Below, in pieces: positions 1 through 64,000 of a DNA stretch of 64,000 bases. The position numbers and the translations under genes were made by a program. How positions within the stretch are numbered: position 1 is the first letter of the stretch; each line of letters opens with the position of its first letter. The stretch is from a virus: the IMG/VR virus record IMGVR_UViG_3300021197_001787, positions 130,232-194,231 of that record. The stretch is one strand, 5' to 3'. A model generated the notes under the pieces. That model was given only the letters and a program-made list of their open reading frames with translations. It ran no database searches and was not told the origin of the DNA.

Positions 1-160
1 ACCATGATTGTACCATATCTTTATCTTTCTTGTCAAATTGTTTTTGACAAGCGCCACACTGTCGCGGTAGCTTTCCAAACTGGGAAATTTTTTGCGCGAG
101 GTTTTCGGTGGCCTCTTGTCCCATATGTTTGTTCATGGCGCGCCGCTGTTTGCGATTCAT
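1..160 (-). CDS. hypothetical protein, partial (runs off window start)
   Basis: Not in ORF track; ATG at 160 overlaps methyltransferase stop (ATGA); reads MNRKQRRAMNKHMGQE...QCGACQKQFDKKDKDMVQSW, open to position 1. Confidence 0.7.
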   Translation of the reverse strand, partial: MNRKQRRAMNKHMGQEATENLAQKISQFGKLPRQCGACQKQFDKKDKDMVQSW

Positions 161-645
161 CGGTTCATAGCTCCAAATATCTGTTGCCTGTAAGCGCCGT
201 CAAATACAACTACTGCTGACGGGAATGGTGCTGAGTTTTCGGAATCTCCAAACTTAAGTCGGCCTTTGACAAAGTATACTTCGTCGGCTTTCATGACGTA
301 TTGGTGCCAATACTTTGTATCGGTGCGGGCTGGAATTAACATAACCACGCGGGTGCCCTCACTGCGAGCCTCGTCATAAGCCTTCTTGATCCAGTTCTCA
401 ATCCCACGGCCATAGGGCGGGTTAATAAAGCAAGTAAACCCTTCCCAGCTTTTTGAAAGACCATCCTCGGCCTCTGTAAAAAAGTTTGCGCATTTAGTGT
501 TACTAGGATCTGCGCAGGGATCTAAATCAAATGGGCCGAAACGCCAATCTAGCTTTTTAAAAAATTCTACTGGGGTTGCCCAGTTTCCCGTCTTAGACGA
601 GAACATTGTTAGCTGCGTATTCTTATTCATTTTCCTCACCGCCAC
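157..645 (-). CDS. phage DNA N6-adenine methyltransferase (Dam-like)
   Basis: NWATP, FDLDPCA and NPPY motifs. Confidence 0.9.
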   Translation of the reverse strand: MAVRKMNKNTQLTMFSSKTGNWATPVEFFKKLDWRFGPFDLDPCADPSNTKCANFFTEAEDGLSKSWEGFTCFINPPYGRGIENWIKKAYDEARSEGTRVVMLIPARTDTKYWHQYVMKADEVYFVKGRLKFGDSENSAPFPSAVVVFDGAYRQQIFGAMNR

Positions 646-877
646 TAATCATTTCAAAGTTTTCAACTACTTCTTCAATGTTGTACTTTTGCTTGAAAAG
701 GCGATATGCCTTTACTGCTGCACGAATCTCATCCGTATTGAGCCAGTTGTTTTCTCGGAACTCAGTGCGCAGTTCGCGCTTTTGTTCCTGATAGGGTTCG
801 ATGCATTCTTCAATAGCCGCCAGTGAGCGAATGTACTCCTTGACGTATTGTTTCTTTTGGTCTTGTGTTGTAGCCAT
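623..877 (-). CDS. small helical DNA-binding-like protein (T4 DsbA/GapR-like)
   Basis: 84 aa, helical, strong SD (AAGGAGG), own sigma70-like promoter; family call from overall resemblance only. Confidence 0.5.
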   Translation of the reverse strand: MATTQDQKKQYVKEYIRSLAAIEECIEPYQEQKRELRTEFRENNWLNTDEIRAAVKAYRLFKQKYNIEEVVENFEMISGGEENE

Positions 878-15988: not shown

Positions 15989-17116
15989 TTATTTAGTAGT
16001 TTCTTCTTCATCATAGAAGTCAGCAGCGGTACCTTGCCGCTTGTCAAACTTCTGAATCACTTCGCTCTCCATAAGCTCAAGTACCTTGGCTCTGAACTCA
16101 TCATCGGTCTTAACAAGCTCAGTCCACTTTGATGGCTGGAACTTCTTAGAATAATCTCCAGATGTCAACGTGTACCATGAACCTGCCGATTGCATGTAAT
16201 TTGAGCTTTTAATTGCGTCAAACCACGATTCTTCATCTTGGATTCCAATGTCTTGAGTTCCCCACAAGATCCTGAATGTGCAGTTCCTGCCTTCAGTCCC
16301 AAAACGAGACTTTTCAAGCTTCACCTTGACCTCGGAACCAATCTTGAACCCCTTATCGTCCAATACTGCTGCTGCCTTAGACTTACGACCGGTTAGCCAA
16401 ATCCTTAACGAGTACGAGTAGTGCATCGCCTTACCGCCGGGAGTGATATACGGGGTTGTCATTGCTATCTGCCGGGCCATGGGGCCATGGGGGATATTTG
16501 TCTTTAATTGATTAAGTACAATGAAAGTCGCCCTCTGATCGGCAATAGGAATGACCAGCTTAGACATACCTTTGGCCAAGATTCGCGCTTTAGTGGCCAC
16601 AGTAGACTGTGGATTAAAGTCACCCTCAACGTCAGAGACCGAAGGCGTAAACGCCAACGAATCCCAAATAAACACCAATTGGTCGTCTGCTGCACCAAGG
16701 AGTTCTTCAATGGTTTCCAAAACAAATTCAACTGAAGATGCTTGAATGTACATTAAGTTTTCCAAGTCACATCCTGCACGATTTAGAAAGTCGGGGTCAA
16801 TTGCTGACTCCGAGTCAAAATAAACCACAAGCTTGCCTTGTTTCTGGGCATTCGCTGCAATTTGAGCAGCCATATAAGATTTGCCAGTTGATTGAAGACC
16901 AGCAATCTCGGTAATTTTTCCAACGGGAACACCAGCTAGCTGACCCTTACAAATGATAGAGTCAAGCCATCTAGAGCCTGTTGGAATCCACTCCTTGACA
17001 GAAGTGGGATTGTCGGTGGTAAGATCGTGTGCCACCTCACGGCCGGCTTTTTTATTTACCAGCTTCATAAGATCATGCATAGATACACGACCTGCTTTAG
17101 TTTTGGCTTTTGCCAT
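15989..17116 (-). CDS. recA: RecA/UvsX recombinase
   Basis: IPTGSRWLD, GKITEIAGLQSTGKS, YFDSE, WDSLA, LNQLK, TPGGKA. Confidence 0.95.
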   Translation of the reverse strand: MAKAKTKAGRVSMHDLMKLVNKKAGREVAHDLTTDNPTSVKEWIPTGSRWLDSIICKGQLAGVPVGKITEIAGLQSTGKSYMAAQIAANAQKQGKLVVYFDSESAIDPDFLNRAGCDLENLMYIQASSVEFVLETIEELLGAADDQLVFIWDSLAFTPSVSDVEGDFNPQSTVATKARILAKGMSKLVIPIADQRATFIVLNQLKTNIPHGPMARQIAMTTPYITPGGKAMHYSYSLRIWLTGRKSKAAAVLDDKGFKIGSEVKVKLEKSRFGTEGRNCTFRILWGTQDIGIQDEESWFDAIKSSNYMQSAGSWYTLTSGDYSKKFQPSKWTELVKTDDEFRAKVLELMESEVIQKFDKRQGTAADFYDEEETTK

Positions 17117-39387: not shown

Positions 39388-41307
39388 TCAGCCTCCAGAC
39401 TCACCCAACAATCCGCGACAAATCACGAGTCCGTACATATCTGGACGAACCATCTTCTTCGCATAACGAGTCATCACGCCCTTGCGAGGCACGAAGTCTT
39501 CTGGTCCGAAGATTGTAGGTGTGGTTTGCAGTGGCACGTATGGTGCGTACACGTATCCGCTTTCAAGGAAAGAAGATCCGCGACGGCCGACGAGGACCAC
39601 GTTGCGGAGGAAGTAAGGATCAACGATAACGTCGAACTTCTTGCTCAGCGAACCAACATTAACAGCACCAATCGTACCAGTCTCTGCATCAGCGGTAACA
39701 TTGGCACGGAATCCAGCAGTGAACTCAAGGATGTTAGCAACTTCAGGTCCTACGACTACGAAGTTAGCTCCACCACGCAGAGTCTTGCGATGGATTTGTG
39801 CAGAGACATCGTTGATAGTTTCAACAAGGGTCTCGTACCACTCAGATACAGTACCAGTGAAATCAGGAGCAGCAGAGCTAGCGCCGACTTCAACACCGTT
39901 GGTCTTGTCTAAGAAAAGACCGGGTGAGCGCGACCAGTAATAGGTTGCAGCGGTTGCACCATTCACAAGGTCAGCAACGATCTCGCGATCAATCTCAAGA
40001 GCAATTTGCTCAGAGAGAATGCTGGTCAACTCAACCTCTGCATCAAGGTTGTGGTAGGCGTTAAGGTCTTGACCTAACTCCGGAGTCCACTTAGCCTTGA
40101 GCTTCTTCGTTTGAGCGGTAACAGCAATGCTGTCGACCTTAATGTCGATCTCAGGAATGTCTGCTTGACCTTCAAGTCCCCAAACAGTCTGACCTTGAAT
40201 AGAGCCGATTGCGTTATCGCCGTTGGCAAAGTCATCAGTTTGTGGGAACTCCCAAGTACAAGAGGCAGTCATAGCAAAACCAGCTAATTGAGCACCACCA
40301 GCATCAGTACCAGAGCCGACACCGAGAGTGGTTCTAATTTCATCAGGTCTCGATGCTGCAATAACACCGGGTGCCGATGCGGTTGTACCAACGAATGTCA
40401 GAAGCATCATGTCAGCCGCGGTTGTAGAGTCCAAGGCAAGTCCAAGCTGATCAGCAATTCCAGCTGGAACAGGACGAGTCAAACGACGCACCAAACGAGC
40501 ACCGGGACCAACAAGACGAAGGCCGCCACCTGCAACCATGAGTTCAGCATTAACACCAGCCGTCGCCGACGATGTAATTGCAGACAAGTTTTCTTGATCA
40601 AGCTGATCAAGAGCAGATGCCGAAATAGCAATAACACTGTACGCATGGGTAGCGAGTGCTCTCGTTGTTTTAGTAAGAGCCAGAAGGTCTGGATCGTACT
40701 CAATGAGCTTACGGTCAAGGTTAGTCATGCTATCATGGATAGCAGCACCAGTAACGAAAACAGCCGCGACGGACGCGTCCGAGCCACTTGGAGAACCATA
40801 CGAGTAGCCGCGTGCTGATGCACGAGGACCGCTAAGGTCACCACCACGGACGTCAACCAAGTCAACACCACCGGTGATTTGAGCACCAACTCGATCAGTA
40901 CCGTAGATGGATTGTCCAGCAACGTTACCAAGCTTACCAGCTTGAGTGGAATCTCCACCAAGATCTCCCGAGAAAGTAAAGTCCAGGAAGAAAATGAGTC
41001 CGCTTGGGAGGCTCATAGGTTGTACAGAAACAAGATCGTTTGCGATCAAGCCTGCGAAAACACGACGAACAATGGGGAATGCGACAGCAGCAAAGCCCTG
41101 TACATCACCTGCGTTCATAGCGGTTGCTTCACGAAGAAGCTCCTTAGCTTGGTTCTCAAGAAGACGAGCCATGCCATTACGGCTTTTGTCGTCCTCAAGT
41201 CCTTCTAAGAGTCCGGTCTTTTCCCACTTTGACAGTAGGGCGTGACCTTCAGCACGCATATCACGATTAACCATACCTTCGGTTAATCTTTCAATAATAC
41301 CAGCCAT
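39388..41307 (-). CDS. major capsid protein (gp23-like)
   Basis: LVSVQPMSLPSGLIFFL, KKLKAKWTPELGQDL, EIDREI, YAPYVPL, GVMTRYA. Confidence 0.96.
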   Translation of the reverse strand: MAGIIERLTEGMVNRDMRAEGHALLSKWEKTGLLEGLEDDKSRNGMARLLENQAKELLREATAMNAGDVQGFAAVAFPIVRRVFAGLIANDLVSVQPMSLPSGLIFFLDFTFSGDLGGDSTQAGKLGNVAGQSIYGTDRVGAQITGGVDLVDVRGGDLSGPRASARGYSYGSPSGSDASVAAVFVTGAAIHDSMTNLDRKLIEYDPDLLALTKTTRALATHAYSVIAISASALDQLDQENLSAITSSATAGVNAELMVAGGGLRLVGPGARLVRRLTRPVPAGIADQLGLALDSTTAADMMLLTFVGTTASAPGVIAASRPDEIRTTLGVGSGTDAGGAQLAGFAMTASCTWEFPQTDDFANGDNAIGSIQGQTVWGLEGQADIPEIDIKVDSIAVTAQTKKLKAKWTPELGQDLNAYHNLDAEVELTSILSEQIALEIDREIVADLVNGATAATYYWSRSPGLFLDKTNGVEVGASSAAPDFTGTVSEWYETLVETINDVSAQIHRKTLRGGANFVVVGPEVANILEFTAGFRANVTADAETGTIGAVNVGSLSKKFDVIVDPYFLRNVVLVGRRGSSFLESGYVYAPYVPLQTTPTIFGPEDFVPRKGVMTRYAKKMVRPDMYGLVICRGLLGESGG

Positions 41308-49068: not shown

Positions 49069-49497
49069 TCATTTCCTGTTAATTTGTTTCCAGACTTGAG
49101 AAGCGCCGCCCATGAGGGAAGAGATATCAACTCCGGAGCTACTCGGATCACCTAAGTCAACTGAGCCAGCGGCCGATTCACGTTGAGTGGGGGCCGGTGT
49201 TGTCCCTTCAAATAAGTCAACTCCGTTGTAAGCGTCAGTGCTCACAGCTTCTAGTAACTTCTTTCTATGCTCTTGGAGCTTCAAACGACCTTCTTCTTGA
49301 CTTCGCTTCATATGTAAGTCTTCATTAAATAGGCGCTCTTCTTGTTTTTTGCTCTCAATAACAACGTTACCTTGTGTTTGCATACCTCTGGCGACTTCTG
49401 AAACAACGTTAGACAATACGCCCTCTTCTATTAGGACTTCGTGAATACATTCTTTCACCAAAGGTTTGATTAATTTTTTTAAGTCAGCTTTTTTCAT
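49069..49497 (-). CDS. hypothetical head-associated protein
   Basis: N-terminus MKKADLKKLIKPLVKECIHEVLIEE. Confidence 0.7.
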   Translation of the reverse strand: MKKADLKKLIKPLVKECIHEVLIEEGVLSNVVSEVARGMQTQGNVVIESKKQEERLFNEDLHMKRSQEEGRLKLQEHRKKLLEAVSTDAYNGVDLFEGTTPAPTQRESAAGSVDLGDPSSSGVDISSLMGGASQVWKQINRK

Positions 49498-51458
49498 AAT
49501 ATCCTCTTATTAATTCCTGCTAAAGTTTGCCAGCGATCAAGCGTTTCTGCTAATTCCGAAGGATCCATTCCCGGCTCGGGAAGGTCTGTTGGGTCTAGGG
49601 CGGCCCCTTTTGGTGGCGGGATCGCTCTTCTTAGACTTTCAACTGATTGGTTTAATTCATCAGCCGCGGTGCCAATGCCATCAGGAATGCCCGGAATCGA
49701 CGAAAGCGTTGCTACACCGCCTAAAACAGTATCAATCCAGAAATCACCATCATCTTGTCTCTTATAAATGGCGGCGGAGATCCACTCTTCTGGTACATTT
49801 TCTATTAATTCTTTTGTAGCGGAGCCGGCCTTTGCCAAATCTTTAGCAGCCTTCGCAGATTTCATTGTTGTAATGGCAGACCTTGCGTTCTTAGCAGAAC
49901 CAAAGGTCTTAATGAGCAGGCGGCCGCCCTTGAAGCTGGCAGGTCCAACTTTTGCTGCTATTTTAGCGCCGATTGGGCCGAGTTTTCCTAGTTTTGATGC
50001 TTTCCCAACAACTGGTGCCAGCGCTACAATATCCAACAATGCAGCGGACATTTTGCCACGGGCCAAATTGAAGACAAGACTGCCGAGAGTGGCTACGCTG
50101 GGGATCAAAGTTGCCTCAAAGGCTGGAATTACGCCGGCGGCAGAAACTGTGTTTAGGGCCGCTTCAATTCCTAATTCAACTCTGCCAAGAGTACTGAGTT
50201 CTTCTTTTTCTTCAGTATCTTCGCCGGGCTCTGAGGCACCTTCTTCATCTTCGGGTTGCGGGTCATCGCCGGTACGGGCCGGCTGTGGGTCACCATCTAC
50301 AGGCGCTGAAGCCTCTGGGGGGAGTTCCTCCGGTGGCAGAGCTTGGCCATAATCTGGACCTTTGCTAAATTTAACTGTGTTAAGCTTGGCCCATTTATTA
50401 AGGACTTTTTCTAAGTTCTTTTGAACTTTGGGGTCTAACCCGAATGAATCTAATAAATCATTTAATTTCTCAGTAGTTTCAGGTGAGAAGGTTCTTGGAT
50501 CGCGGTCGGGGCCACCAAGCGCCTCCAGTACTATGTCATCTTCTTCTGTAGCCTTTAGAAGCAATTGTAATAATTGTGTTAGCTGCTCATCAGGTATTAA
50601 GCCGGGCTTTTCAGGATCTGGTTTTAAAAGATTTATTAATGAATCAGGGTATTCCCTGCTGTTGATGCCGGCTATAATCTTATCTTGGTCATCCGGTTCA
50701 TCGGACGCAGCCTTTGAAGCATCGGCTTGGGCTTTTCTTGCCGCTACCTCGTCAGGCGAAAGTTTTCTTCTGTCCGGGTCTGCTTCTGGCTCGGCTTTAG
50801 CCGGCTCTGGGCTTGGTTCAGGATCAAAATCCGACGAATCTGGCAAGTTCTTAAGACCAGGAATATCATCAAGAGAGATTTGATTTAGCTCATCATCACT
50901 AAGAGTTTGATCCCCATCTGTGTCGTAGGGTTTAAGGAAGTCAAGATCATTCTTAAGACTGTGAAAAAGATTTGGAAACTTATTGGTAAGCCACGATAAG
51001 GTTAACTCTTGCCCTATCAATTTTTCAGCGCTCATTAGCACTATCTTTCCAAATGCGTCTCCTAAAGCTTTATCAATTTCTGTTGGGTTGGGTACCGACT
51101 GATGGGGGGCATACCAGCCCAATGCATCTTTGGTATCAACGTCTTCGTCCATGGGGTTAAATGGGGTACCATCTGATTTCTCAAATACATAGTACATCTG
51201 ATCGTCACCTTTACCATACGTACCGACGTTGCGCACTGATTTTACAAACCATATCAACTTCCCCGCGTCTCCATCATTAAGCATTTGTTGCGCAAAGGAC
51301 GCGGCATGATCTCTCACAATTCTAGCCAAGTTTGCGGGAATCTTATTTAAAGGGTCAGCTTTGGTGTCTGCTGCGGTCTGTCCCGGCTTAAAATCATAGC
51401 TAGGAGCTTCGCTTAAGTGACGTTGCCAGCCTTCATATATAACCTTGTAACTACTCAC
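49494..51458 (-). CDS. large acidic internal-head-like protein
   Basis: Leader KVIYEGWQRHLSE; EF-hand-like DTDGDQTLSDDE; hydrophobic ALLDIVALAPVVGK; tail RWQTLAGIN. Confidence 0.6.
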   Translation of the reverse strand: MSSYKVIYEGWQRHLSEAPSYDFKPGQTAADTKADPLNKIPANLARIVRDHAASFAQQMLNDGDAGKLIWFVKSVRNVGTYGKGDDQMYYVFEKSDGTPFNPMDEDVDTKDALGWYAPHQSVPNPTEIDKALGDAFGKIVLMSAEKLIGQELTLSWLTNKFPNLFHSLKNDLDFLKPYDTDGDQTLSDDELNQISLDDIPGLKNLPDSSDFDPEPSPEPAKAEPEADPDRRKLSPDEVAARKAQADASKAASDEPDDQDKIIAGINSREYPDSLINLLKPDPEKPGLIPDEQLTQLLQLLLKATEEDDIVLEALGGPDRDPRTFSPETTEKLNDLLDSFGLDPKVQKNLEKVLNKWAKLNTVKFSKGPDYGQALPPEELPPEASAPVDGDPQPARTGDDPQPEDEEGASEPGEDTEEKEELSTLGRVELGIEAALNTVSAAGVIPAFEATLIPSVATLGSLVFNLARGKMSAALLDIVALAPVVGKASKLGKLGPIGAKIAAKVGPASFKGGRLLIKTFGSAKNARSAITTMKSAKAAKDLAKAGSATKELIENVPEEWISAAIYKRQDDGDFWIDTVLGGVATLSSIPGIPDGIGTAADELNQSVESLRRAIPPPKGAALDPTDLPEPGMDPSELAETLDRWQTLAGINKRIL

Positions 51459-52056
51459 AATCCAAAACCTCGTTTAACAATCTGTTAATACGGTCGGCTT
51501 TGGTGAATACTTGGTTGTTGTAGTCTTTAGCTTCCTTCATCATGAAAGCGTTCGGGGTTGAAGGCTCGGAAACAAAGTCAAAGCATATTAATTGAAAATC
51601 TTCTTGGACAACGGTTGTATCGTTTGATTCTGAAACAGAACCCATGCCGCGGCTGGATATGCCCAGCTTAACATCAGAATGTACCAAAGACTTTAGGATC
51701 TGGCCAGAAGGGGTGTCGAGCACTTTTACCTTGCCCATAACAGTTTTATCTTGCATCCATATTTTTGTAACCATGTGAGAAGCATTTCTTAGATTGATTA
51801 CAGAATCGTCTGGGTGGTCGAGTTCTCCAAGGGCGCGGTTTTCTTCTACAAGTTTTTGATAGTTCTTGACTTCGCGCATCAAAACATTGTACGGGTACAT
51901 CCTGCGATTGCCGTTTACGACGTCGGCTTCTTGCAGTTTTCCGGTCAGCATGCAGCCGCCCTCTGCAACAAACCTCTTTTCGTCTTCGGTTAGAAGGTCT
52001 TGGCAAACTCCGCCGTCGCAGAGTTCATAAAATTCTCTAAGTAGTTTCTTACCCAT
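51451..52056 (-). CDS. prohead maturation protease (gp21-like)
   Basis: NGNRRMYP, ALGELDHP, ASHMVT, LGISSRGMGS, FDFVSEPST. Confidence 0.95.
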   Translation of the reverse strand: MGKKLLREFYELCDGGVCQDLLTEDEKRFVAEGGCMLTGKLQEADVVNGNRRMYPYNVLMREVKNYQKLVEENRALGELDHPDDSVINLRNASHMVTKIWMQDKTVMGKVKVLDTPSGQILKSLVHSDVKLGISSRGMGSVSESNDTTVVQEDFQLICFDFVSEPSTPNAFMMKEAKDYNNQVFTKADRINRLLNEVLDCE

Positions 52057-52432: not shown

Positions 52433-53020
52433 TCAACTCCTCACATCAGGTTCATCGGAATCAGGGTGGGCGCCGGTGGCCTGCTGCATTTTTAATTCTA
52501 AATCTTTATTTAAGTCTGGAAGCGGGTCATCTGGGTTTGAAGATTGTGCAAGAGCAAAGATACTGCGTGCCCATTTTCGCAACAACTCTTTATCAATCAA
52601 ATTTTCATATTCATCTTCTATATTTAGCTGATCGTAGCCCGGAAGGTTAGTGGTTAACGAATCATCCATCCCCATCACATCATCAACTATAAAAGCACCA
52701 ATTTGTCCACCGCGGGCTTTTGCTTGATCTGCTAACCATTGTGTTGCGTCTTCAGCACCTTGTTCCAGTTTGTTCTGTAATTCATCTGGGATCCAATCTA
52801 AAATATCTTCGGCTCCCTTTATAGCATCTCCAATAAGCTTAACCTTTCCTAACGCCAGCTTAACTCCAAATTTTGCTAATGTCTTACCAAAGCGCGGCCA
52901 CTTGCTGGCAGCTTGAGCCATTATAATATTCTGAGACAGCTCGCCCCATGTTTTTGGGTTTTCAACATCTTCGTTAATATACCTGTCCCAGCGTTCAATT
53001 ATAACTTTCATTTCAGACAT
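52433..53020 (-). CDS. acidic internal-head-like protein
   Basis: Leader MKVIIERWDRYINE. Confidence 0.65.
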   Translation of the reverse strand: MSEMKVIIERWDRYINEDVENPKTWGELSQNIIMAQAASKWPRFGKTLAKFGVKLALGKVKLIGDAIKGAEDILDWIPDELQNKLEQGAEDATQWLADQAKARGGQIGAFIVDDVMGMDDSLTTNLPGYDQLNIEDEYENLIDKELLRKWARSIFALAQSSNPDDPLPDLNKDLELKMQQATGAHPDSDEPDVRS

Positions 53021-56428: not shown

Positions 56429-58012
56429 TCACTTTATAATCCACATATATTCTTTGTAAAGATTCTCTGCATCGGACATTTTATCCATTATGCCATCTTC
56501 TTTATAACCAATTTGTCCTTTTATTTTTGTGTCAAAACTGGTTCTAGAAGTTATTATAGCATCTACGAAAGCCTTCTTGTAGTTCAAATCTCTTTGATTT
56601 GTCTGCAATGCTGTGTCTCTGACCCAACAAGCAATCGCAAGCGCCATAACTAAATCATCATTGTATCCTTTTAATGCTTGGGGTTTTCCATTTGTCCAAA
56701 TAAATGTTCTCAATTCATTTGCCAAACGAGACGAATATGTAGTAATTAGTTTGTTTCTTATAAACTCTTCTAATTTAGCAACAACCAGTGGACGTGTTTT
56801 TGATGAAGTGGTGAATCCAGGGACAGCAGAACTTCTGTGTTCGGCCATATGTTGTTCAATATATTCATGGGTAGACTTTACAGAATAATAAATATTTGGG
56901 TAAGCATAGTCAATAAGCTTATCTAGAACTGTGTATCCAATACTATTATTTTCTATCACTACCATAGCATTTCCATACTCTCTTCCAATTTGGTTCAACA
57001 TGTTGGCATACAGGTCAGGGGTTGGCTTGCCTTGATATTCGCCTATTATCTGCATAGTTTCTAATTTAATAATGTGAAATGTTGAATAGTCAGCCCCATC
57101 TCCGCGTGCAACGTCGGCAGTCAACAGATAACTACACGATGGGTCATGCTCTTCCCAAATCCAAAAATTTCTATCAAAAGCAGTACGATATTTAGGCTCA
57201 GTAACGTTGCCACCAATCCACTCTAAAGCGTCAGGGCCAATTACAGTCTCGCCTGAAGTGTTGAAGTTGCATTCCAGTTCTTGAGCTATTTGGCGACGAG
57301 ACATATTTCGGGTTTCTTTTTTAAACCATTCTTCATTTCGTTCAGGGTGGACATCCCACATCAAGGTCGTTAATTTAAAATTATTTTCTTTTGTTTCGGC
57401 GCCAATGCAAGTTTTATGAAACCAGTTGCCGACACCATTGGGTGTAGAAATAGCGATGCATCGCCCACCAGTTGACAGCGTAGGGTACAGACCAGTCCAT
57501 AAATCCTCAAGCCCATCAATATGAGCAGCCTCGTCAAGGACCAACAGCGACAAGGCTTCTGAGCGGCCGGCGTCACCGGAGGTCGAAGCAGCTTTAATTG
57601 TTGAGCCGTTAGAAAGCTCAAACGAGGTGCGGTTATCAGTAGAGATAGATGCAATCCTAATCCAGTCTGGTAGGTTTTTCATTATGCTCTTGACCTTGCG
57701 GACAAGGTTTCCGGCAGTTTCAAACTTTGTAGCCATGACAAGAATAGACTTGTCGCGGTGGAACAGCATCATCCACACAATGTAGCCAGCAGTTAAGGTT
57801 GATATACCAAGTTGGCGGCCTTTGTTAATTACGTTAAAGCGGTAATCATTAAAATCATCTAGCAATAAATCTTGATAATCAAAAGTATTAAAAAGGATTA
57901 GCCCGTGCATCGGGTGTGATATACGGGCATAAGTTTTAAGGAAATAGGAGGGGTCTTTACCACATTTAACTACTTCTTTTAATATCTCTTTCTTTGTTAA
58001 TTTGAAGCTCAT
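56429..58012 (-). CDS. terminase large subunit (gp17-like)
   Basis: KGRQLGIST, LLVLDEAA, ISTPNG, TADVARGDGADYS, NDDLVMALAI. Confidence 0.96.
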   Translation of the reverse strand: MSFKLTKKEILKEVVKCGKDPSYFLKTYARISHPMHGLILFNTFDYQDLLLDDFNDYRFNVINKGRQLGISTLTAGYIVWMMLFHRDKSILVMATKFETAGNLVRKVKSIMKNLPDWIRIASISTDNRTSFELSNGSTIKAASTSGDAGRSEALSLLVLDEAAHIDGLEDLWTGLYPTLSTGGRCIAISTPNGVGNWFHKTCIGAETKENNFKLTTLMWDVHPERNEEWFKKETRNMSRRQIAQELECNFNTSGETVIGPDALEWIGGNVTEPKYRTAFDRNFWIWEEHDPSCSYLLTADVARGDGADYSTFHIIKLETMQIIGEYQGKPTPDLYANMLNQIGREYGNAMVVIENNSIGYTVLDKLIDYAYPNIYYSVKSTHEYIEQHMAEHRSSAVPGFTTSSKTRPLVVAKLEEFIRNKLITTYSSRLANELRTFIWTNGKPQALKGYNDDLVMALAIACWVRDTALQTNQRDLNYKKAFVDAIITSRTSFDTKIKGQIGYKEDGIMDKMSDAENLYKEYMWIIK

Positions 58013-58770
58013 ACATCTTTTAAGTTTTCGTTAGCTCGGCCAAGAGAATCTCCCGTGTCTAAACCATCTAAAATATTAGCGACATTATCAAGAGCGCTTT
58101 GTAATTCTGGATGGTGTTTGACTGCATCTTCAAGGGCGTGATATGTCGTCATTAACTTTTCATAATCGCTGGGGGCTTCTTTGGCTGGGGGTGTCTCCCC
58201 TTTCATTACGTCGTAAGATGCTTCAAAATCTTGGTAATCATCAAACACTTCTTTAATCATAGCTTTGACTTCTTCAAATCCTATTCTGCGACGTGGCGGC
58301 TCAACAGAGCCTGGAGCCAACTGCTCTAAAACATTGGTGAATAAATCCACCATTTCTGCTTCGGACATGCCTTGAACAAGTCCAATAACTTGCTCACGTA
58401 CATCTATTTCTTGATTACCTGAAGATCCGAATGAGGCCTCATCCTCCACATCATACGCCCCTTCTTCGTCAGGCACGTCATTGTACTGAGGCATATCATC
58501 CGTAGGAAGAGGCATTGTTTCAGCAGAACGATCAACCTTGGAATCATATGCTGGTGTTTGCTTTCCGCGCTTGTAACTACCAGGACCATATTCACGTTCA
58601 AGCCACTCTGGCTTGGGGCCCTCTTTCTTAATCCAAGCTACAAACTCATCAGCCTTTTCTTGAGTCATAGCTTCGTCAAGATTAAATTCTTTAGCATATT
58701 CTTCTAAAGCTTCTTCTTTGGCGTATTCTTCTAGAATGATCTGCTTAAGTCGTGATTCAGTAATCTGCAC
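58009..58770 (-). CDS. acidic internal-head-like protein
   Basis: Start moved to GTG 58770; leader QITESRLKQIILEE. Confidence 0.65.
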   Translation of the reverse strand: MQITESRLKQIILEEYAKEEALEEYAKEFNLDEAMTQEKADEFVAWIKKEGPKPEWLEREYGPGSYKRGKQTPAYDSKVDRSAETMPLPTDDMPQYNDVPDEEGAYDVEDEASFGSSGNQEIDVREQVIGLVQGMSEAEMVDLFTNVLEQLAPGSVEPPRRRIGFEEVKAMIKEVFDDYQDFEASYDVMKGETPPAKEAPSDYEKLMTTYHALEDAVKHHPELQSALDNVANILDGLDTGDSLGRANENLKDV

Positions 58771-58771
58771 T

Positions 58772-59320
58772 TTACGATTCCTTTTTTCTAGAATCGTTAT
58801 CTGGACGTTTGCCGCCTTTACCGTTCCAACCACCTTGGTCAAGGAACTTTTTAAAGCTGTCTTCTAATCGGTCTTCAGAAGGTACATTATGTGTCATGTC
58901 TTCAGATAGACCACCAATCTTGTAGTGCATTGCTGCAGTTACCCAGCTTCTAACTCTAGAGCTGTTTTCAACACGAACATCTATCTCGCCCTGCTTTGTG
59001 AGTGTGACACCAGAGCCAGTAATCTTTTTATATTCTTTCTTCAAAAACTTAACGACATCGGCAATTCTCTGCTCTACTTCTTGTTCAAAACCATTAGCAT
59101 ATACTTCGCGTAACTGTACTTCTGAATGATATCCGAGACACATCATATTACCATTAAAGTTAATATTAAATCCATCCATGACTCTCTTGTCGATTAAAGG
59201 ACGACCTTCTTCGCGTTGAAGCCCAACCTTCACGGCTTCTCCATTTTCGTCTAATGCTCCATCATAGCCATTAGCTGCGGCCTGCGATAAGCCTTGTATA
59301 ATTTCGTAAACTGTTGCCAT
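58772..59320 (-). CDS. hypothetical protein
   Basis: 182-aa ORF coupled to neighbours. Confidence 0.7.
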   Translation of the reverse strand: MATVYEIIQGLSQAAANGYDGALDENGEAVKVGLQREEGRPLIDKRVMDGFNINFNGNMMCLGYHSEVQLREVYANGFEQEVEQRIADVVKFLKKEYKKITGSGVTLTKQGEIDVRVENSSRVRSWVTAAMHYKIGGLSEDMTHNVPSEDRLEDSFKKFLDQGGWNGKGGKRPDNDSRKKES

Positions 59321-59925
59321 TACTGGTCTCCTTTCGTTTTCTTGTACTGTAAATAGTGTTTAACTGAAGAAAGGTAATCAGATGCTTTAGTGATTTTAGC
59401 TTGCACCCAAGCGTCTAATTCTTCCCCGTCTTGAATCATTTGTTCCAATTCTGATGCATATTCTGCTGTCCGGTATAATTGAGACTTGGCCATCTGTGAT
59501 TCATCTTGGTCATAACCACTACTCATTTGTGGGGATGGTTGTGCGGCTGGGAGTTGCGGGTCGCCACAGCCCTCAGTCTGCACTTGTGGTTTGGCCGCGG
59601 CCACTGCCGCTGACTTTAATGTAGTACCAGCGCCTTGCCCGGTCATCCTTGTTCTATTTTTCTTGACGTCCAGGCCGGCCGGTTCAGACTTTAACCTAGT
59701 TTGTAAAATATTGAAAACTTTTTGAATAATAGGGCGTTTCGTATTAAGATCAAGACCTGGCTGCGCAGCTAAATCGAGCATGAACTGATTAATTTGAGTA
59801 GCAATACCTTGCTCTGCTGAGTTGACATCACCTTTTTCAGTGGGCGGTGGGGTTTCTGTGGCTTGTTGATTCTCATCCAAAGCCTCCAGTATTGCTTGTC
59901 TTATATCATTTTTGGTTATCTTCAT
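59320..59925 (-). CDS. internal-head-like protein
   Basis: Leader MKITKNDIRQAILEAL; C-terminal MAKSQLY...WVQAKITKASDYL. Confidence 0.65.
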   Translation of the reverse strand: MKITKNDIRQAILEALDENQQATETPPPTEKGDVNSAEQGIATQINQFMLDLAAQPGLDLNTKRPIIQKVFNILQTRLKSEPAGLDVKKNRTRMTGQGAGTTLKSAAVAAAKPQVQTEGCGDPQLPAAQPSPQMSSGYDQDESQMAKSQLYRTAEYASELEQMIQDGEELDAWVQAKITKASDYLSSVKHYLQYKKTKGDQ

Positions 59926-60295
59926 TTGGGCGCCATCCTTTTAGCCATCTGTCTTCTCTTTGCTGTACATATTTGTAGTAGCATTTCTCGCAACATTCGA
60001 ATTTTACTAAACAAACATTGTCCATAGATTTTTTGGGGAATTCTCCACAAACAGGACAAGATTGAATAGATTCTCTATTAAGTAGTTTTTTTGATACCTT
60101 TATGCCATTTATATCTATTTTCTCGCTAGACTCTTCATTGCGTTTAGTTTTTTGGTATAGAGCTTTCATTTGCTCAAGATATTCTTTTTCTTTGTTCTCG
60201 TCCCAATTTGCCTTTGGATTTTGAATTGTTTCTTCGCCATACTTTTCAGCAATTGCTTTTTCTACAGCGGCTAGCTGATCATAATTTTTACTCAT
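59906..60295 (-). CDS. Zn-finger hypothetical protein
   Basis: CPVC...CCEKC. Confidence 0.7.
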   Translation of the reverse strand: MSKNYDQLAAVEKAIAEKYGEETIQNPKANWDENKEKEYLEQMKALYQKTKRNEESSEKIDINGIKVSKKLLNRESIQSCPVCGEFPKKSMDNVCLVKFECCEKCYYKYVQQREDRWLKGWRPNEDNQK

Positions 60296-60707
60296 TTATT
60301 GCTCTATACGCGCCATAAGAGGCTGCAGTGCCAATGAGGATCCCACCAGCAAAATACAACCATTTGTAACGGGGCGAAGTTTTTTTTAGTGAATTAGACA
60401 AAGCTTTAATTTCCATATCTTTCTGTATTATAAACAAATCGTATTCATCTGTTAAGGCTTTATGTTCTATTCCTAGATTTTCTAGCTTAAACTCGTACTC
60501 TTCCTTTTGAATCTTTAATTGATAGTCAGTTTTTATATCGCACGAATATTTGTATATGTCAAAGTCAGCTAGCATTTTTGCCATGGCTTTCTCATCAAAA
60601 AGCACACCAGCAAATGGGGCGGGCGCTTTGTACTCTAAAATGGTAAACTTTGCTGGCTCCGCAGCATTGGCCGTGAGACTAAACATTAAGAGTAATTTAA
60701 GGAGCAT
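60288..60707 (-). CDS. exported protein with C-terminal hydrophobic anchor (lysis-accessory candidate)
   Basis: Start moved to ATG 60707; signal MLLKLLLMFSLTANA, coiled coil, WLYFAGGILIGTAASYGAY. Confidence 0.55.
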   Translation of the reverse strand: MLLKLLLMFSLTANAAEPAKFTILEYKAPAPFAGVLFDEKAMAKMLADFDIYKYSCDIKTDYQLKIQKEEYEFKLENLGIEHKALTDEYDLFIIQKDMEIKALSNSLKKTSPRYKWLYFAGGILIGTAASYGAYRAINE

Positions 60708-61080
60708 ACTGGATACCAAACCTATTTTCTATGTCTATAATCAATTGTTCTCTATCTTGGTTGAACTTGTTTCTATACTCACCTTTCTTATCTTCTCTCA
60801 ATTGCTCAATCATTTCAAGAGCATTTTCGTAGTCCTCTTCAATGGCGGCAATGGATTCCATGTGCTCTTCCATTAGTTTCTGCTTCTTACGTATCTCTTG
60901 CTTATGAATTTCTTTCAAACCTTCAATTTGTGCTTCGTGAGAGTCCGACTGTATCTCATATGCCTGCTGCATTAAATGATGATCATATTTGCTTTTCATT
61001 GCTATAACGGCAGAAAGCAACACGATCAGTATTGCCTTCCAGTTTTTGAGCGCAAATTCAAGTATTGCAGCCTTAGTCAT
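60697..61080 (-). CDS. i-spanin-like protein
   Basis: Start moved to ATG 61080; single N-terminal TM then coiled coil. Confidence 0.5.
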   Translation of the reverse strand: MTKAAILEFALKNWKAILIVLLSAVIAMKSKYDHHLMQQAYEIQSDSHEAQIEGLKEIHKQEIRKKQKLMEEHMESIAAIEEDYENALEMIEQLREDKKGEYRNKFNQDREQLIIDIENRFGIQYAP

Positions 61081-61273
61081 TATAACCTCGCAATCTAGCA
61101 ATGCCATCAATAACTGTCTGGCCCCCAATATAGATTGCGGAGATGATTACCCAATCTTCACTGGTCACGTGTCCAGCAAGAGTGAGTCCTGTAGCTGTTA
61201 GCCATACCATTAATTTACGTGAAGTCAGTTTTGACAACCATGAATCCATAAATGCTTGTGCTTTTGCCATCAT
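61073..61273 (-). CDS. holin-like membrane protein
   Basis: 66 aa, dual MM start, SRKL then two hydrophobic segments, basic tail. Confidence 0.6.
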   Translation of the reverse strand: MMAKAQAFMDSWLSKLTSRKLMVWLTATGLTLAGHVTSEDWVIISAIYIGGQTVIDGIARLRGYND

Positions 61274-61286
61274 TGTTACCTCTCTT

Positions 61287-61583
61287 TTAATTAAGTTTTG
61301 CCAGCTTAGAAGCTAAGCTAGGAGTTTCTTTCTTGAACTGAGCTATGCAGCCTTTGATACTTTCTACATCTGCTGGGCCATCATACCAATCTACAAAAAC
61401 AGCAGCCATATCATATCGTACAATCCACTTCCTAGCTATACCAGCATCTTCACAAAGTTTTGTGAATATATCTGCAACTGCTTCAGGATCTGTTTCTTCC
61501 TCGACGTCGACCAGAGTGGATTCAATTTCTGCTGTAGCTGTTTTTTTCACCAGACCGGTCCATAGTCTTTTTAATAAATTCAT
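61287..61583 (-). CDS. hypothetical protein (after last repeat)
   Basis: SD AAGGA right after repeat copy 5. Confidence 0.7.
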   Translation of the reverse strand: MNLLKRLWTGLVKKTATAEIESTLVDVEEETDPEAVADIFTKLCEDAGIARKWIVRYDMAAVFVDWYDGPADVESIKGCIAQFKKETPSLASKLAKLN

Positions 61584-61618
61584 TATATTATTCCTTTTAA
61601 GTTGCTAATCCATTCATA

Positions 61619-61918
61619 CTATAATTTTTTCAAATCTGCAATTTCTTGATGTAAATTCATTACACCTTTAAAACTGCCGGGGTCAGCGTAAAGTGCTGCT
61701 GTAATAAGTGCCCAAGCCATACTGCCGACATCTTCTCCAAATACGTCCATTACCGTTTGGCGGGATGCATCCATAGCCATTTCATATGATTGTTGATCAT
61801 CTGCCCGTTCTGGGCTTTTCTCAAGATACGAATCTTCAATTTCTTCTTTAATAATATCTGTCTTCTCGTCCATAAAATAACGAGGATCAAATCTTCTTGT
61901 GTTTTTTCTTCTAGCCAT
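61619..61918 (-). CDS. cassette gene, hypothetical
   Basis: MARRKNTRRFDPRYFMDEK...IIKEE; between repeats. Confidence 0.75.
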   Translation of the reverse strand: MARRKNTRRFDPRYFMDEKTDIIKEEIEDSYLEKSPERADDQQSYEMAMDASRQTVMDVFGEDVGSMAWALITAALYADPGSFKGVMNLHQEIADLKKL

Positions 61919-61951
61919 TATAAATCTCCTATGTTGCTAATCCATTCATAC

Positions 61952-62305
61952 TTAAAATCTTTCCTGTCCGGGATCCGAGTCAGTAGCTAACATCTTTGTC
62001 AGCGCTGACATTATCTCTTGTTGCTGATCGGGAGGAAGCTGTAACATTTCACGCATAGATTTCATTATTGATCTTGCATCTTTGTTGTCGACCCTTCTGA
62101 GTCTTTCGATAAAATCTTCCATTACTCGGCTGATGGTGTCACTTGTTTCTTGATCCAAGGTGTCCCAGTCTAGCCCACCTTTATGGAAGGTGCCGCGGCG
62201 GGGCATTGCTGCATCGGCTTTGGATTGAGGGTGTGATTCTCCACCGTAGTAGTCTCTAAGCTCTTCTTTGATAATTTGTTTAAGCTGTTGTTTTGTAATT
62301 TTCAT
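61952..62305 (-). CDS. cassette gene with KITKQQLKQIIKEE leader
   Basis: SD supplied by repeat. Confidence 0.8.
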   Translation of the reverse strand: MKITKQQLKQIIKEELRDYYGGESHPQSKADAAMPRRGTFHKGGLDWDTLDQETSDTISRVMEDFIERLRRVDNKDARSIMKSMREMLQLPPDQQQEIMSALTKMLATDSDPGQERF

Positions 62306-62336
62306 AATAATCTCCTATGTTGCTAATCCATTCATA

Positions 62337-62696
62337 TTAGTATTTGTCTCTAATTGTTTTGTCTACTTTGGCGCGGAGGTAATCATCCCACCGATTAATT
62401 GCAGCAAGAAATGCATCATCGTCATTGCCTGCTGGCAATTCAATATATTTGCCATCTGGACTGTTGTAAGAGATTACATATTTTGGCCATTCGCCAATTA
62501 GTTTTATATTAGCTCTTTTTTTGTCGTCTTCGTCGAATTCGAATACCTTTTTATATTCTGATATTCCGAAATCACCCACTAATTCTACTAATTCATCTTG
62601 TTCCTCAACGGGGATATACCCCCGTGTTTTCTCTGCCTCTAAAGTATCGACGCCTTCAGTTATGTGCTTTCGCCAATTTTCAAATAGTTTGTTCAT
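62337..62696 (-). CDS. cassette gene with NKLFENWRKH leader
   Basis: Start moved to ATG 62696, which abuts the repeat (ATGA overlap). Confidence 0.75.
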   Translation of the reverse strand: MNKLFENWRKHITEGVDTLEAEKTRGYIPVEEQDELVELVGDFGISEYKKVFEFDEDDKKRANIKLIGEWPKYVISYNSPDGKYIELPAGNDDDAFLAAINRWDDYLRAKVDKTIRDKY

Positions 62697-62715
62697 GTTG
62701 CTAATCCATTCATGC

Positions 62716-62949
62716 TTATAATTCGTTCTCAAAGTCAATAACCGCTTCTTCAGCAGTTTGTAAAAGTCCTAAAAGCTTTTTATCTTTTATGTATCTGTTG
62801 CGTATGTAATCTGCAAGAGCTTCTATTGCGGCGGTGTGTGGATCTGCTACGGAACTTGTGGAACCTCCCGGCACCCCTAATCCATATTGACCTACCTCTG
62901 TTAACTCTTCTTTGATAATCTGTTTAAGTTGTTGCTTTGTAATCTTCAT
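62716..62949 (-). CDS. cassette gene with KITKQQLKQIIKEE leader
   Basis: Second ATG (62949) is 6 nt from AGGAG. Confidence 0.8.
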   Translation of the reverse strand: MKITKQQLKQIIKEELTEVGQYGLGVPGGSTSSVADPHTAAIEALADYIRNRYIKDKKLLGLLQTAEEAVIDFENEL

Positions 62950-62958
62950 CATAATCTC

Positions 62959-64000
62959 CTATGTTGCTAATCCATTCATACTTAGTATCGCAATCAAGCC
63001 GGGCACATTCTTTCTGACATAAACGCCAGAGAAAAGTGTCTCGCATCGACCGCCGACATAAGCGATTGCCGACTCAATATTTTTGCTGACCTTGGGATCT
63101 GCCACCATCTCTTCTGACACAACCAACACTAACGAACCTGCGGCTGCCTTCCCCTTCGGCGGGGGGCACGCTGACCTATTCATGCAGTTATGGAGAATCA
63201 CCGATCCAAGCTTAGCTGTATTTGGATCCTTTATCATAGTTGAGCCTAAGAAGGCACGACCGTCATTGCCCAAACATGTTTCCAAATCCTTGCTGTCAAA
63301 AGATTGGATCGGTGAATCCTCGGTGGAGAGCTTTAACACTTGGGCAAGTGACTTAGCAAAAGTTGTGTTGGCGACTGGGTACATGCCAAGCATGCCGATT
63401 CTGCCGCGCAGTAAGCGTGTAGCTCGTTCGTTATCTAAAACGATATGTGGGTGCTTGGCAACATCATTTGCCAGCGTCAACGCATTACGAGCGATTGTGG
63501 GGTTGAGGTTTTCTTGTGCTGTCGGCCAAGAGACTATATAAATGACTTTGCCAGTCGACTGCACAGAGCGCATGTAACGCTCAAAGACAGGGTGCAGAGC
63601 GGTAACACTACTACCGGTACCACCGCCACCGCCAGCAAGGACGAATAGCCAATCAACTTTACCGAGCTTGATACGCAGGGCATCTTCAACAATCGCGCCA
63701 TTTTGACTTAAAACCTCTTTTCCATAGTCTACGTTTTTTCCAATCCCGTCTGAATCGGGGATGAGGACAACGTGATCCTCTTCTACATTCTTGGGGATGT
63801 CTTTACCTGTTGAATTTACGAGTAGCGTCTTATTGAATCCAAGCTCAATAAACGCATTCGCCATTTTATTGCCTCCACCGCCGACACCGACAAAACCAAC
63901 ATTGATAGATGAGGGTGCTGTGTTCTCGGGGAGTAAATCTTCATCAGAGTATTCCATCTGTAATCCGAAGTCCTCAACCATACCGAAGTCTTCTGCATCC
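62959..64000 (-). CDS. tubulin/FtsZ-family GTPase (PhuZ/TubZ-like), 5' partial
   Basis: FVGVGGGGNKMA, signature AGGGGGTGSS, LDNE, T7-like FDSKD; frame open to 64000 (DAEDFGMVEDFG). Confidence 0.9.
   Translation of the reverse strand, partial: DAEDFGMVEDFGLQMEYSDEDLLPENTAPSSINVGFVGVGGGGNKMANAFIELGFNKTLLVNSTGKDIPKNVEEDHVVLIPDSDGIGKNVDYGKEVLSQNGAIVEDALRIKLGKVDWLFVLAGGGGGTGSSVTALHPVFERYMRSVQSTGKVIYIVSWPTAQENLNPTIARNALTLANDVAKHPHIVLDNERATRLLRGRIGMLGMYPVANTTFAKSLAQVLKLSTEDSPIQSFDSKDLETCLGNDGRAFLGSTMIKDPNTAKLGSVILHNCMNRSACPPPKGKAAAGSLVLVVSEEMVADPKVSKNIESAIAYVGGRCETLFSGVYVRKNVPGLIAILSMNGLAT

Follow-up and report, generated by a model that had tools for sequence, protein, structure and literature searches.

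The last 64,000 nucleotides (nt) of the virus record IMGVR_UViG_3300021197_001787 (its positions 130,232 to 194,231), which form the window analysed here, contain an array of small genes punctuated by short copies of the 3′ end of a neighbouring gene of the tubulin/FtsZ family. The record, 194,231 base pairs (bp) long, was assembled from a metagenome and derives from an uncultured marine phage. The array is bounded by the tubulin gene and gF and lies a few genes upstream of the terminase gene (Table 1). Positions are those of the window unless preceded by G000, which denotes the full record, or by an L-number (such as L007), which denotes a related viral contig.

A 17-mer, ATGAATGGATTAGCAAC, occurs in five exact minus-strand copies at 61601, 61933, 62319, 62697 and 62963, separated by 332, 386, 378 and 266 nt. 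Shuffled sequences are expected to hold 0.01 copies, and five copies were seen in none of 100 shuffles. The tubulin-end copy, at 62963–62979, reads ..ILS-MNGLAT-stop, while the other four begin 1–2 nt past the stop codon of the upstream gene (TAA+GC, TAA+T, TAA+GT and TAG+T), and each of these four runs into the Shine-Dalgarno sequence (SD) or the ATG of the next gene. All five encode MNGLAT followed by a stop codon, which is TAG in three cases, TGA in one and TAA in one. Reading the minus strand thus bore out the initial annotation as to the five copies, their spacings, their stop and SD context and the copy at the tubulin end. The genome-wide scatter of the 17-mer that by its own account would have counted against it was not seen: no copy lies outside the array in the 194,231-bp record, and the nearest other match, at G000 114805, has three mismatches.

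The repeated unit is longer than had been claimed, although the 17-mer itself is exact. An alignment of the five copies here with 53 distinct internal copies from relatives gives a full repeat of ~28 nt, made up of ATACTAAGT, the 17-mer, AT and the remainder of a stop codon. To the right it ends abruptly, at the T of the tubulin stop codon, and to the left it tails off between −15 and −7. Most upstream cassettes take as their stop the TAA in CTAAGT, a triplet that the tubulin gene itself does not read in frame. Internal copies are followed by the same junction types as tubulin copies (ATGA overlap, TAG+GGAG and TAA+AAGG), suggesting that each internal unit of repeat plus cassette was once placed directly behind the tubulin gene. 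Longer tubulin pieces are kept in two copies, in L015 at 3927 and in L083 at 7720. The tubulin of L083 has a divergent C-terminus of its own (..TMTGLSDG, tail at L083:7024-7044), yet its array holds a 35-nt canonical tubulin-tail piece (L083:7702-7736); this piece is foreign to the tubulin of L083 and directly attests the import of a block of tail plus cassette from another phage. Copies also occur upstream of the tubulin gene, at L064:5860-5876 and L015:550-566.

The product of the tubulin gene carries GGGGGTGS, the G-box (GGGTGS-type) signature of the tubulin/FtsZ superfamily, and its best solved relatives are FtsZ proteins (E = 8e-11), with TubZ reaching just 0.01. To judge from these matches, it is a genuine member of the superfamily, nearer to FtsZ than to PhuZ or TubZ; among 50,697 phage records it found no match. 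When the ends of the record are joined, the tubulin open reading frame (ORF) is unbroken and codes for 379 amino acids (aa), 39 of them additional N-terminal residues (window 63982–64000 plus G000 1–98). As the frame stays open across this junction, the record behaves as a circle, and is effectively circular despite its linear form.

The genes enclosed by the repeats are unrelated apart from their leaders, as first described: gA and gC resemble each other over only ~22 N-terminal residues. None of the five cassettes of the window has a significant Pfam or PHROG match, a homologue search returned only unnamed metagenome proteins, and the ESM Atlas returned only unnamed viral clusters, all with scores below 0.9. 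Among the 145 longest cassette proteins of relatives, Pfam matches were limited to PGDYG (two proteins), DnaJ (one protein) and three marginal families.

Table 1 Features of the window, in window positions; leader classes are those described in the text.
Feature	Position	Strand	Remarks
UvsX/RecA-type recombinase	15989..17116	-	PF00154 123 bits; phrog_97 1e-61
654-aa protein directly after the protease gene	49494..51458	-	Class-2-like N-terminus ..YKVIYEGWQRHLSE
Prohead core serine protease, T4-type, gp21-like	51451..52056	-	Pfam PF03420 102 bits; phrog_207 3e-55
Head-module protein	52433..53020	-	N-terminus MSEM-KVIIERWDRYINE resembles class-2 leader; similar N-terminus in ~40 of 80 protease-locus relatives
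gF, conserved 66-aa membrane protein	61073..61273	-	Right anchor of hypervariable region; in 80 of 80 relatives, 48-100% identity
gE, 98 aa	61287..61583	-	Class-4 N-terminus MNLLKRLW; family semi-conserved at distal end of many arrays
Repeat copy 5	61597..61621	-	ACT-TAA, then SD AAGG; right breakpoint of swap relative to L007
Cassette gD, 99 aa	61619..61918	-	Class-3 leader MARRKNTRRFDPRYF
Repeat copy 4	61929..61954	-	Stop TAG, then SD GGAG
Cassette gC, 117 aa	61952..62305	-	Class-1 leader; homologues in metagenomes only
Repeat copy 3	62315..62339	-	Stop TAG, then SD GGAG
Cassette gB, 119 aa	62337..62696	-	Class-2 leader MNKLFENWRKHITE
Repeat copy 2	62693..62718	-	gA stop TAA 2 nt before repeat ATG; repeat stop TGA overlaps gB start (ATGA)
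Cassette gA, 78 aa	62716..62952	-	Class-1 leader MKITKQQLKQIIKEEL
Repeat copy 1, source copy	62959..62988	-	Tubulin last codons (..I-L-S-M-N-G-L-A-T) and stop TAG; out-of-frame TAA in CTAAGT
Tubulin/FtsZ-family GTPase gene, left border of array	62959..64000, running past window end	-	Pfam PF00091 34.4 bits (cut-off 33)

The phage is a distant T4-type myovirus. Besides the protease and the recombinase in Table 1, it encodes a gp23-type capsid protein (PF07068, 241 bits) and portal, large terminase, tail sheath and tape-measure proteins. No close cultured relative was found, the best TerL match in phage records (Flavobacterium phage immuto) being 47% identical. A GIY-YIG nuclease was not found in the genome, and its sole HNH gene lies far from the array, at G000 72 kb.

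This tubulin is encoded by at least 176 viral contigs, of which we analysed the best 80 (89–100% identity), picked by tubulin similarity. ORFs were called crudely (ATG starts only, at least 25 aa), with one family, F0, inflated by leader similarity, and the array statistics treat contigs as unrelated, ignoring shared ancestry. The 17-mer is present in 118 viral contigs, with one to four exact copies in each. Among the 80 loci, the interval from tubulin to gF ranges from 13 to 5180 bp and the arrays take 75 distinct versions, with ~97 ORF families between them, in line with the recombination-shaped, expandable array that had been proposed. Identical arrays were found in five contig pairs from different samples, which argues against an assembly artefact. 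Internal copies are absent from 39 of the 75 arrays, single in 24 and number two to five in the remaining 12, and overall about 30% of gene junctions carry a copy and about 70% do not.

Copies are concentrated towards the tubulin end of the array, at a median position of 0.37 of its length, and those farther from the tubulin gene have more mismatches (rho 0.30, p = 0.017; positive in nine of ten arrays). Where the tubulin copy of a genome has one form of a GCA/GCG variant, its internal copies tend to have that form too (odds ratio 14, p = 0.003). Comparison across genomes reveals synonymous changes in the tubulin copy (GCG, TTG, GGG/GGT and AAC) with MNGLAT kept, contrary to the initial suggestion that missing synonymous variation points to a constraint on DNA or RNA; the identity of copies within a genome fits recent copying or homogenisation. 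Among the 53 internal copies, the in-frame stop is kept in 52, and the start is kept in 43 and lost in ten. Conservation within the repeat core is lowest at the ATG (0.87–0.91), and the 3′ half, beside the downstream start, is the best conserved. We found no own-tail repeats in relatives whose tubulins end in MNGLKQ, MNGLDT or MNGIQKGK, indicating that tail copying is not a general property of the locus.

General breakpoint counts were dominated by the ends of tubulin and gF homology and hence uninformative, and a cassette-level analysis was used instead. In at least six genome pairs, the same block lies behind the tubulin copy in one genome and behind an internal copy in the other (L029/L063, with 950 nt, L041/L043, L021/L022, L043/L050, L050/L053 and L043/L056), and the homology of these blocks begins between 9 nt before and 3 nt after the repeat ATG. 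The source phage and L007 have flanks that are 96–97% identical, between which the cassette block has been swapped, with its right end at copy 5. Likewise, the cassette behind the 3′ end of gC and its repeat is a different one in each of the window phage, L018 and L022. Gain or loss of cassettes at the repeat, which had been proposed as a check in relatives, is found in several genome pairs. Other events involve different sequences. L054 and L066 share the same gC–gD junction nearly without a repeat, copy 4 being almost entirely absent, and in L064 a 7-nt microhomology (ACCAAGT in the leader, ACTAAGT in the tubulin tail) links a truncated MKITK leader to a copy ~25 nt ahead of the tubulin start. 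The proposed role of the repeat as a crossover site holds in those genome pairs, but it is not the sole site, as leaders and microhomologies are used too.

Taken together, we think it probable, if well short of certain, that the repeats are footprints and short handles of the recombination that shuffles the cassettes, providing short portable homology for UvsX-type and microhomology recombination. The repeats are nested fragments of the 3′ end of the tubulin/FtsZ-like gene, the conserved gene that bounds a hyperplastic region of small orphan genes on its left. An internal copy would arise when a block consisting of tubulin tail, stop, start region and cassette is joined behind another cassette, presumably through a few bases of microhomology around TAA/AAGT, whereby the upstream gene would take the out-of-frame TAA of CTAAGT as its stop. 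Once present, copies of 17–28 nt could serve as portable homology for UvsX-type machinery, and unequal exchange between them, within a genome or among co-infecting relatives, would add, delete or swap cassettes; conserved leaders would supply comparable homology. The UvsX/RecA-type recombinase is the likely engine of such short-homology exchange. Array growth would occur mostly at the tubulin-proximal end, and the MNGLAT mini-ORF and its varied stops would be by-products. What the sequences show directly is the repeat anatomy, the hypervariability, the breakpoints at the repeat, the decay gradient and the lack of promoter, terminator or RNA structure. We infer the joining and exchange steps, and they are supported by good precedent in T4-like phages both for microhomology joining (bioRxiv 10.1101/2022.04.14.488369) and for repeat-mediated shuffling (PMC2839356; PMC4122927).

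Several observations weigh against this account. Most right-hand borders of variable blocks do not lie at the repeat, and multi-cassette arrays devoid of the repeat occur in relatives with other tubulin tails, so the repeat is one shuffling route and not the sole one. Left ends cluster mostly 7–15 nt before the repeat ATG, more tightly than random illegitimate joining would give. In homologous pairs, the repeat core is 92–93% identical versus 77–85% for the cassette bodies, and synonymous diversity is 0.18 in the last ten tubulin codons versus roughly 0.44 in the whole gene. Both the core conservation and the low synonymous diversity could reflect a function of the sequence itself instead of homogenisation. 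Homogenisation by frequent exchange would account for the two of them, and we leave room for a sequence function beside it.

Such a function might lie in expression, with ribosomes restarting at the repeat ATG, reading MNGLAT and stopping at the next SD or ATG, so that translation is relayed from gene to gene, or with the 3′ half acting as a translation enhancer. The placement of the repeat suits this idea: the upstream stop falls 1–2 nt before its ATG and its own stop overlaps the next start or SD, stop and start are retained in most internal copies, the best-conserved half adjoins the downstream start, and cassette bodies are less conserved than the core. However, the ATG is the least conserved element of that core, gC and gD are paired in L054 and L066 with almost no repeat, most junctions have no copy at all, and the stop and the right-hand junction types may simply be inherited from the tubulin context. 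We regard an expression module as rather improbable, and the translational coupling of the initial annotation is, as a requirement, contradicted by the ten lost starts, the two nearly repeat-free junctions and the 39 arrays without an internal copy. The loss of the start also led us to reject the MNGLAT mini-ORF as a requirement. Slightly less probable again is a site at which RNA or DNA is bound or cut, be it by a translational repressor, by an RNase processing a polycistronic transcript or at a locus-specific operator. Copies that are exactly identical within a genome, conserved above their flanking sequence and all in one orientation, within the 5′ region of the gene that follows, would be expected of such a site; against it, folds of the five copies with their flanks predicted no RNA structure (z from −1.3 to +1.6), and a scan of 58500–64000 placed neither a sigma-70-like promoter (10 sites found versus 12.9 expected) nor an intrinsic terminator-like site at any copy. 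Close relatives, moreover, have anything from zero to five internal copies, many cassettes lack one, distal copies are decayed, and no candidate partner was identified. The T4 late box TATAAATA has just five occurrences on the coding strand. A generic genome-wide promoter or operator was also considered and rejected, there being no other genomic copy and no enrichment of sub-motifs.

In a site-specific system comparable to integrons (attI/attC, IntI), a dedicated recombinase would use the repeat as an attachment site for precise insertion and excision. As in integrons, the array is polar, with promoterless small cassettes beside a fixed element and the youngest-looking copies next to it, and cassettes are repeat-flanked, with the repeat moving between genomes along with them. 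But the tyrosine integrase (PF00589) of such systems was not found in the whole genome (serine recombinases were not searched for), no attC-type inverted repeat or hairpin is predicted at any copy, the left boundary is ragged and not fixed, and many cassettes and junctions have no repeat. An integron proper was rejected on the missing integrase and the ragged boundaries, and we consider any integron-like system very unlikely. Finally, the record was assembled from a metagenome, and assemblers can be led astray by short repeats; a chance repeat or an artefact confined to one contig is nonetheless close to inconceivable given the expectation of 0.01 copies by chance, the occurrence of the repeat in 118 independent viral contigs and the identical arrays in cross-sample contig pairs, and a repeat of 17–30 nt was judged too short to mislead a metagenome assembler.

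Recombinational shuffling at the repeats has its closest parallel in the promoter-early stem-loops (PeSLs) of T4-like phages, which mediate modular shuffling (Arbiol et al. 2010, PMC2839356; Comeau et al. 2014, PMC4122927). Both kinds of repeat span the interval from the stop of an orphan gene to the next SD or start, in a hyperplastic region of a T4-type phage, and both provide portable homology to which insertions, deletions and replacements between close relatives map, though here only some events do. In contrast to a PeSL, which combines a sigma-70-like early promoter with a stem-loop terminator and is found in ~50 copies per genome across many regions, the tubulin-tail repeat has neither element; it copies the coding 3′ end of a conserved gene, stays within one locus with 0–5 internal copies, and gives the upstream gene its stop. 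T4 itself recombines at microhomologies of 6–10 bp, giving tandem amplifications and deletions (Srikant, Guegler and Laub 2022, bioRxiv 10.1101/2022.04.14.488369). There, as here, one copy of the homology remains between units and accessory-gene content evolves fast, but the T4 events were laboratory duplications of a single segment, whereas here different genes lie between the repeats and the pattern is fixed in natural populations. The feature is thus repeat-mediated shuffling in a T4-type hyperplastic region, unusual in drawing its repeat from the coding end of a conserved gene.

What the array carries may be hinted at by its leaders. At least four N-terminal classes are found among array ORFs, MKITKxQLKQIIKEE (class 1), MKKLFENWRKHLNE (class 2), MARRKN..DPRYF and MNWLKxLW, and these four take in 154 of the 266 distinct array ORFs. 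Class-1 and class-2 leaders have 14 residues, the last three matching [LI]xE, with Glu at residue 14 in 73 of 76 class-1 and 22 of 33 class-2 members, against a background of 0.011 per residue. The motif [LI]xE is the cleavage motif of the T4 prohead protease. Both proteins flanking the protease gene of this phage (Table 1) carry a class-2-like pattern, K-V-I-x-E-x-W-x-R-x-[LI]-x-E. A radical-SAM partner for the leaders is absent. It is plausible that the cassettes encode packaged or injected cargo, given the combination of a T4-type protease with a gp23-type capsid, leaders ending in [LI]xE at residue 14 and a class-2 leader beside the protease.

Further leader-like sequences were observed around the array. 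Two conserved genes just upstream of the terminase gene (58009–58842 and 59320–59925, minus strand) carry class-1-like peptides, ..ITESRLKQIILEE, possibly at an internal start, and MKITKNDIRQAILE. Leaders are modular across relatives (L007–L086), an MA(I/R)RKN..DPRYFMDEKT leader being fused to I(I/V)KEEL and then to a gC-type body (RDYY..), and on these sequences IIKEE looks like a joint common to leader classes. Two more genes with MKITKSQLKQ leaders lie directly upstream of the tubulin gene (G000 110–792, minus strand, outside the window), and their bodies differ in L007, which makes the tubulin gene an island in a hyperplastic region extending to both sides. The major capsid protein (39388–41307, minus strand) has 639 aa, with the gp23 domain limited to residues 377–625, and its long N-terminal extension holds several [LI]xE motifs.

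The internal-protein (ip) loci of T-even phages and their capsid targeting sequence, reportedly described by Repoila and colleagues in 1994, offer a model for such cargo. They too are hypervariable sets of small unrelated genes with a common N-terminal leader in phages with a gp23-type capsid and a gp21-type protease. In the T-even phages the common leader directs packaging, and Ip1–3 inhibit distinct GmrSD enzymes (PMC12373910). The array differs in its leaders (MKITKxQLKQIIKE and MKKLFENWRKHLNE here versus MKTYQEFIAE), and in having at least four classes of putative leader; nor have T4 ip loci been reported to be punctuated by 3′-end copies of a neighbouring gene. Carried to its full extent, the comparison would make the array an interchangeable pool of head-packaged proteins whose 14-residue leaders are cut at Glu14 by the prohead protease and which are injected as counter-defence factors. 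It would then be a recombinase-free polar array, somewhat integron-like in layout, with units entering beside the tubulin gene, each bringing a tubulin-tail copy that gives the previous gene its stop and the next its start context. This combination of packaging and injection we put forward tentatively and regard as possible but doubtful.

Past the array, conserved genes at 59906–61273 (minus strand) encode small proteins that are either of membrane type or rich in Cys: a transmembrane segment is predicted in gF, gG has a transmembrane segment and a coiled coil, gI is Cys-rich, and gH has a weak match to superinfection-exclusion gp17-like proteins (E = 0.0015–0.007). Lying just ahead of the terminase gene, gF to gI may form a cluster for lysis or exclusion.

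Our analysis indicates that the coding tail of a conserved gene can be put to new use by a phage, as a portable junction that ends one orphan gene, introduces the next and offers a handle for recombination. The tubulin-tail junction thereby extends the PeSL idea past regulatory repeats. The locus is also a rich hotspot of accessory genes in a widespread uncultured phage group, with its many ORF families in 80 contigs and Pfam matches for few of the 145 longest proteins. If the packaging and injection of these proteins were true, it would be the internal-protein hotspot of an abundant uncultured group of marine T4-like phages. If the leaders are capsid-targeting signals, the array would be a catalogue of candidate injected proteins, and the leaders could be used to find such cargo in metagenomes.

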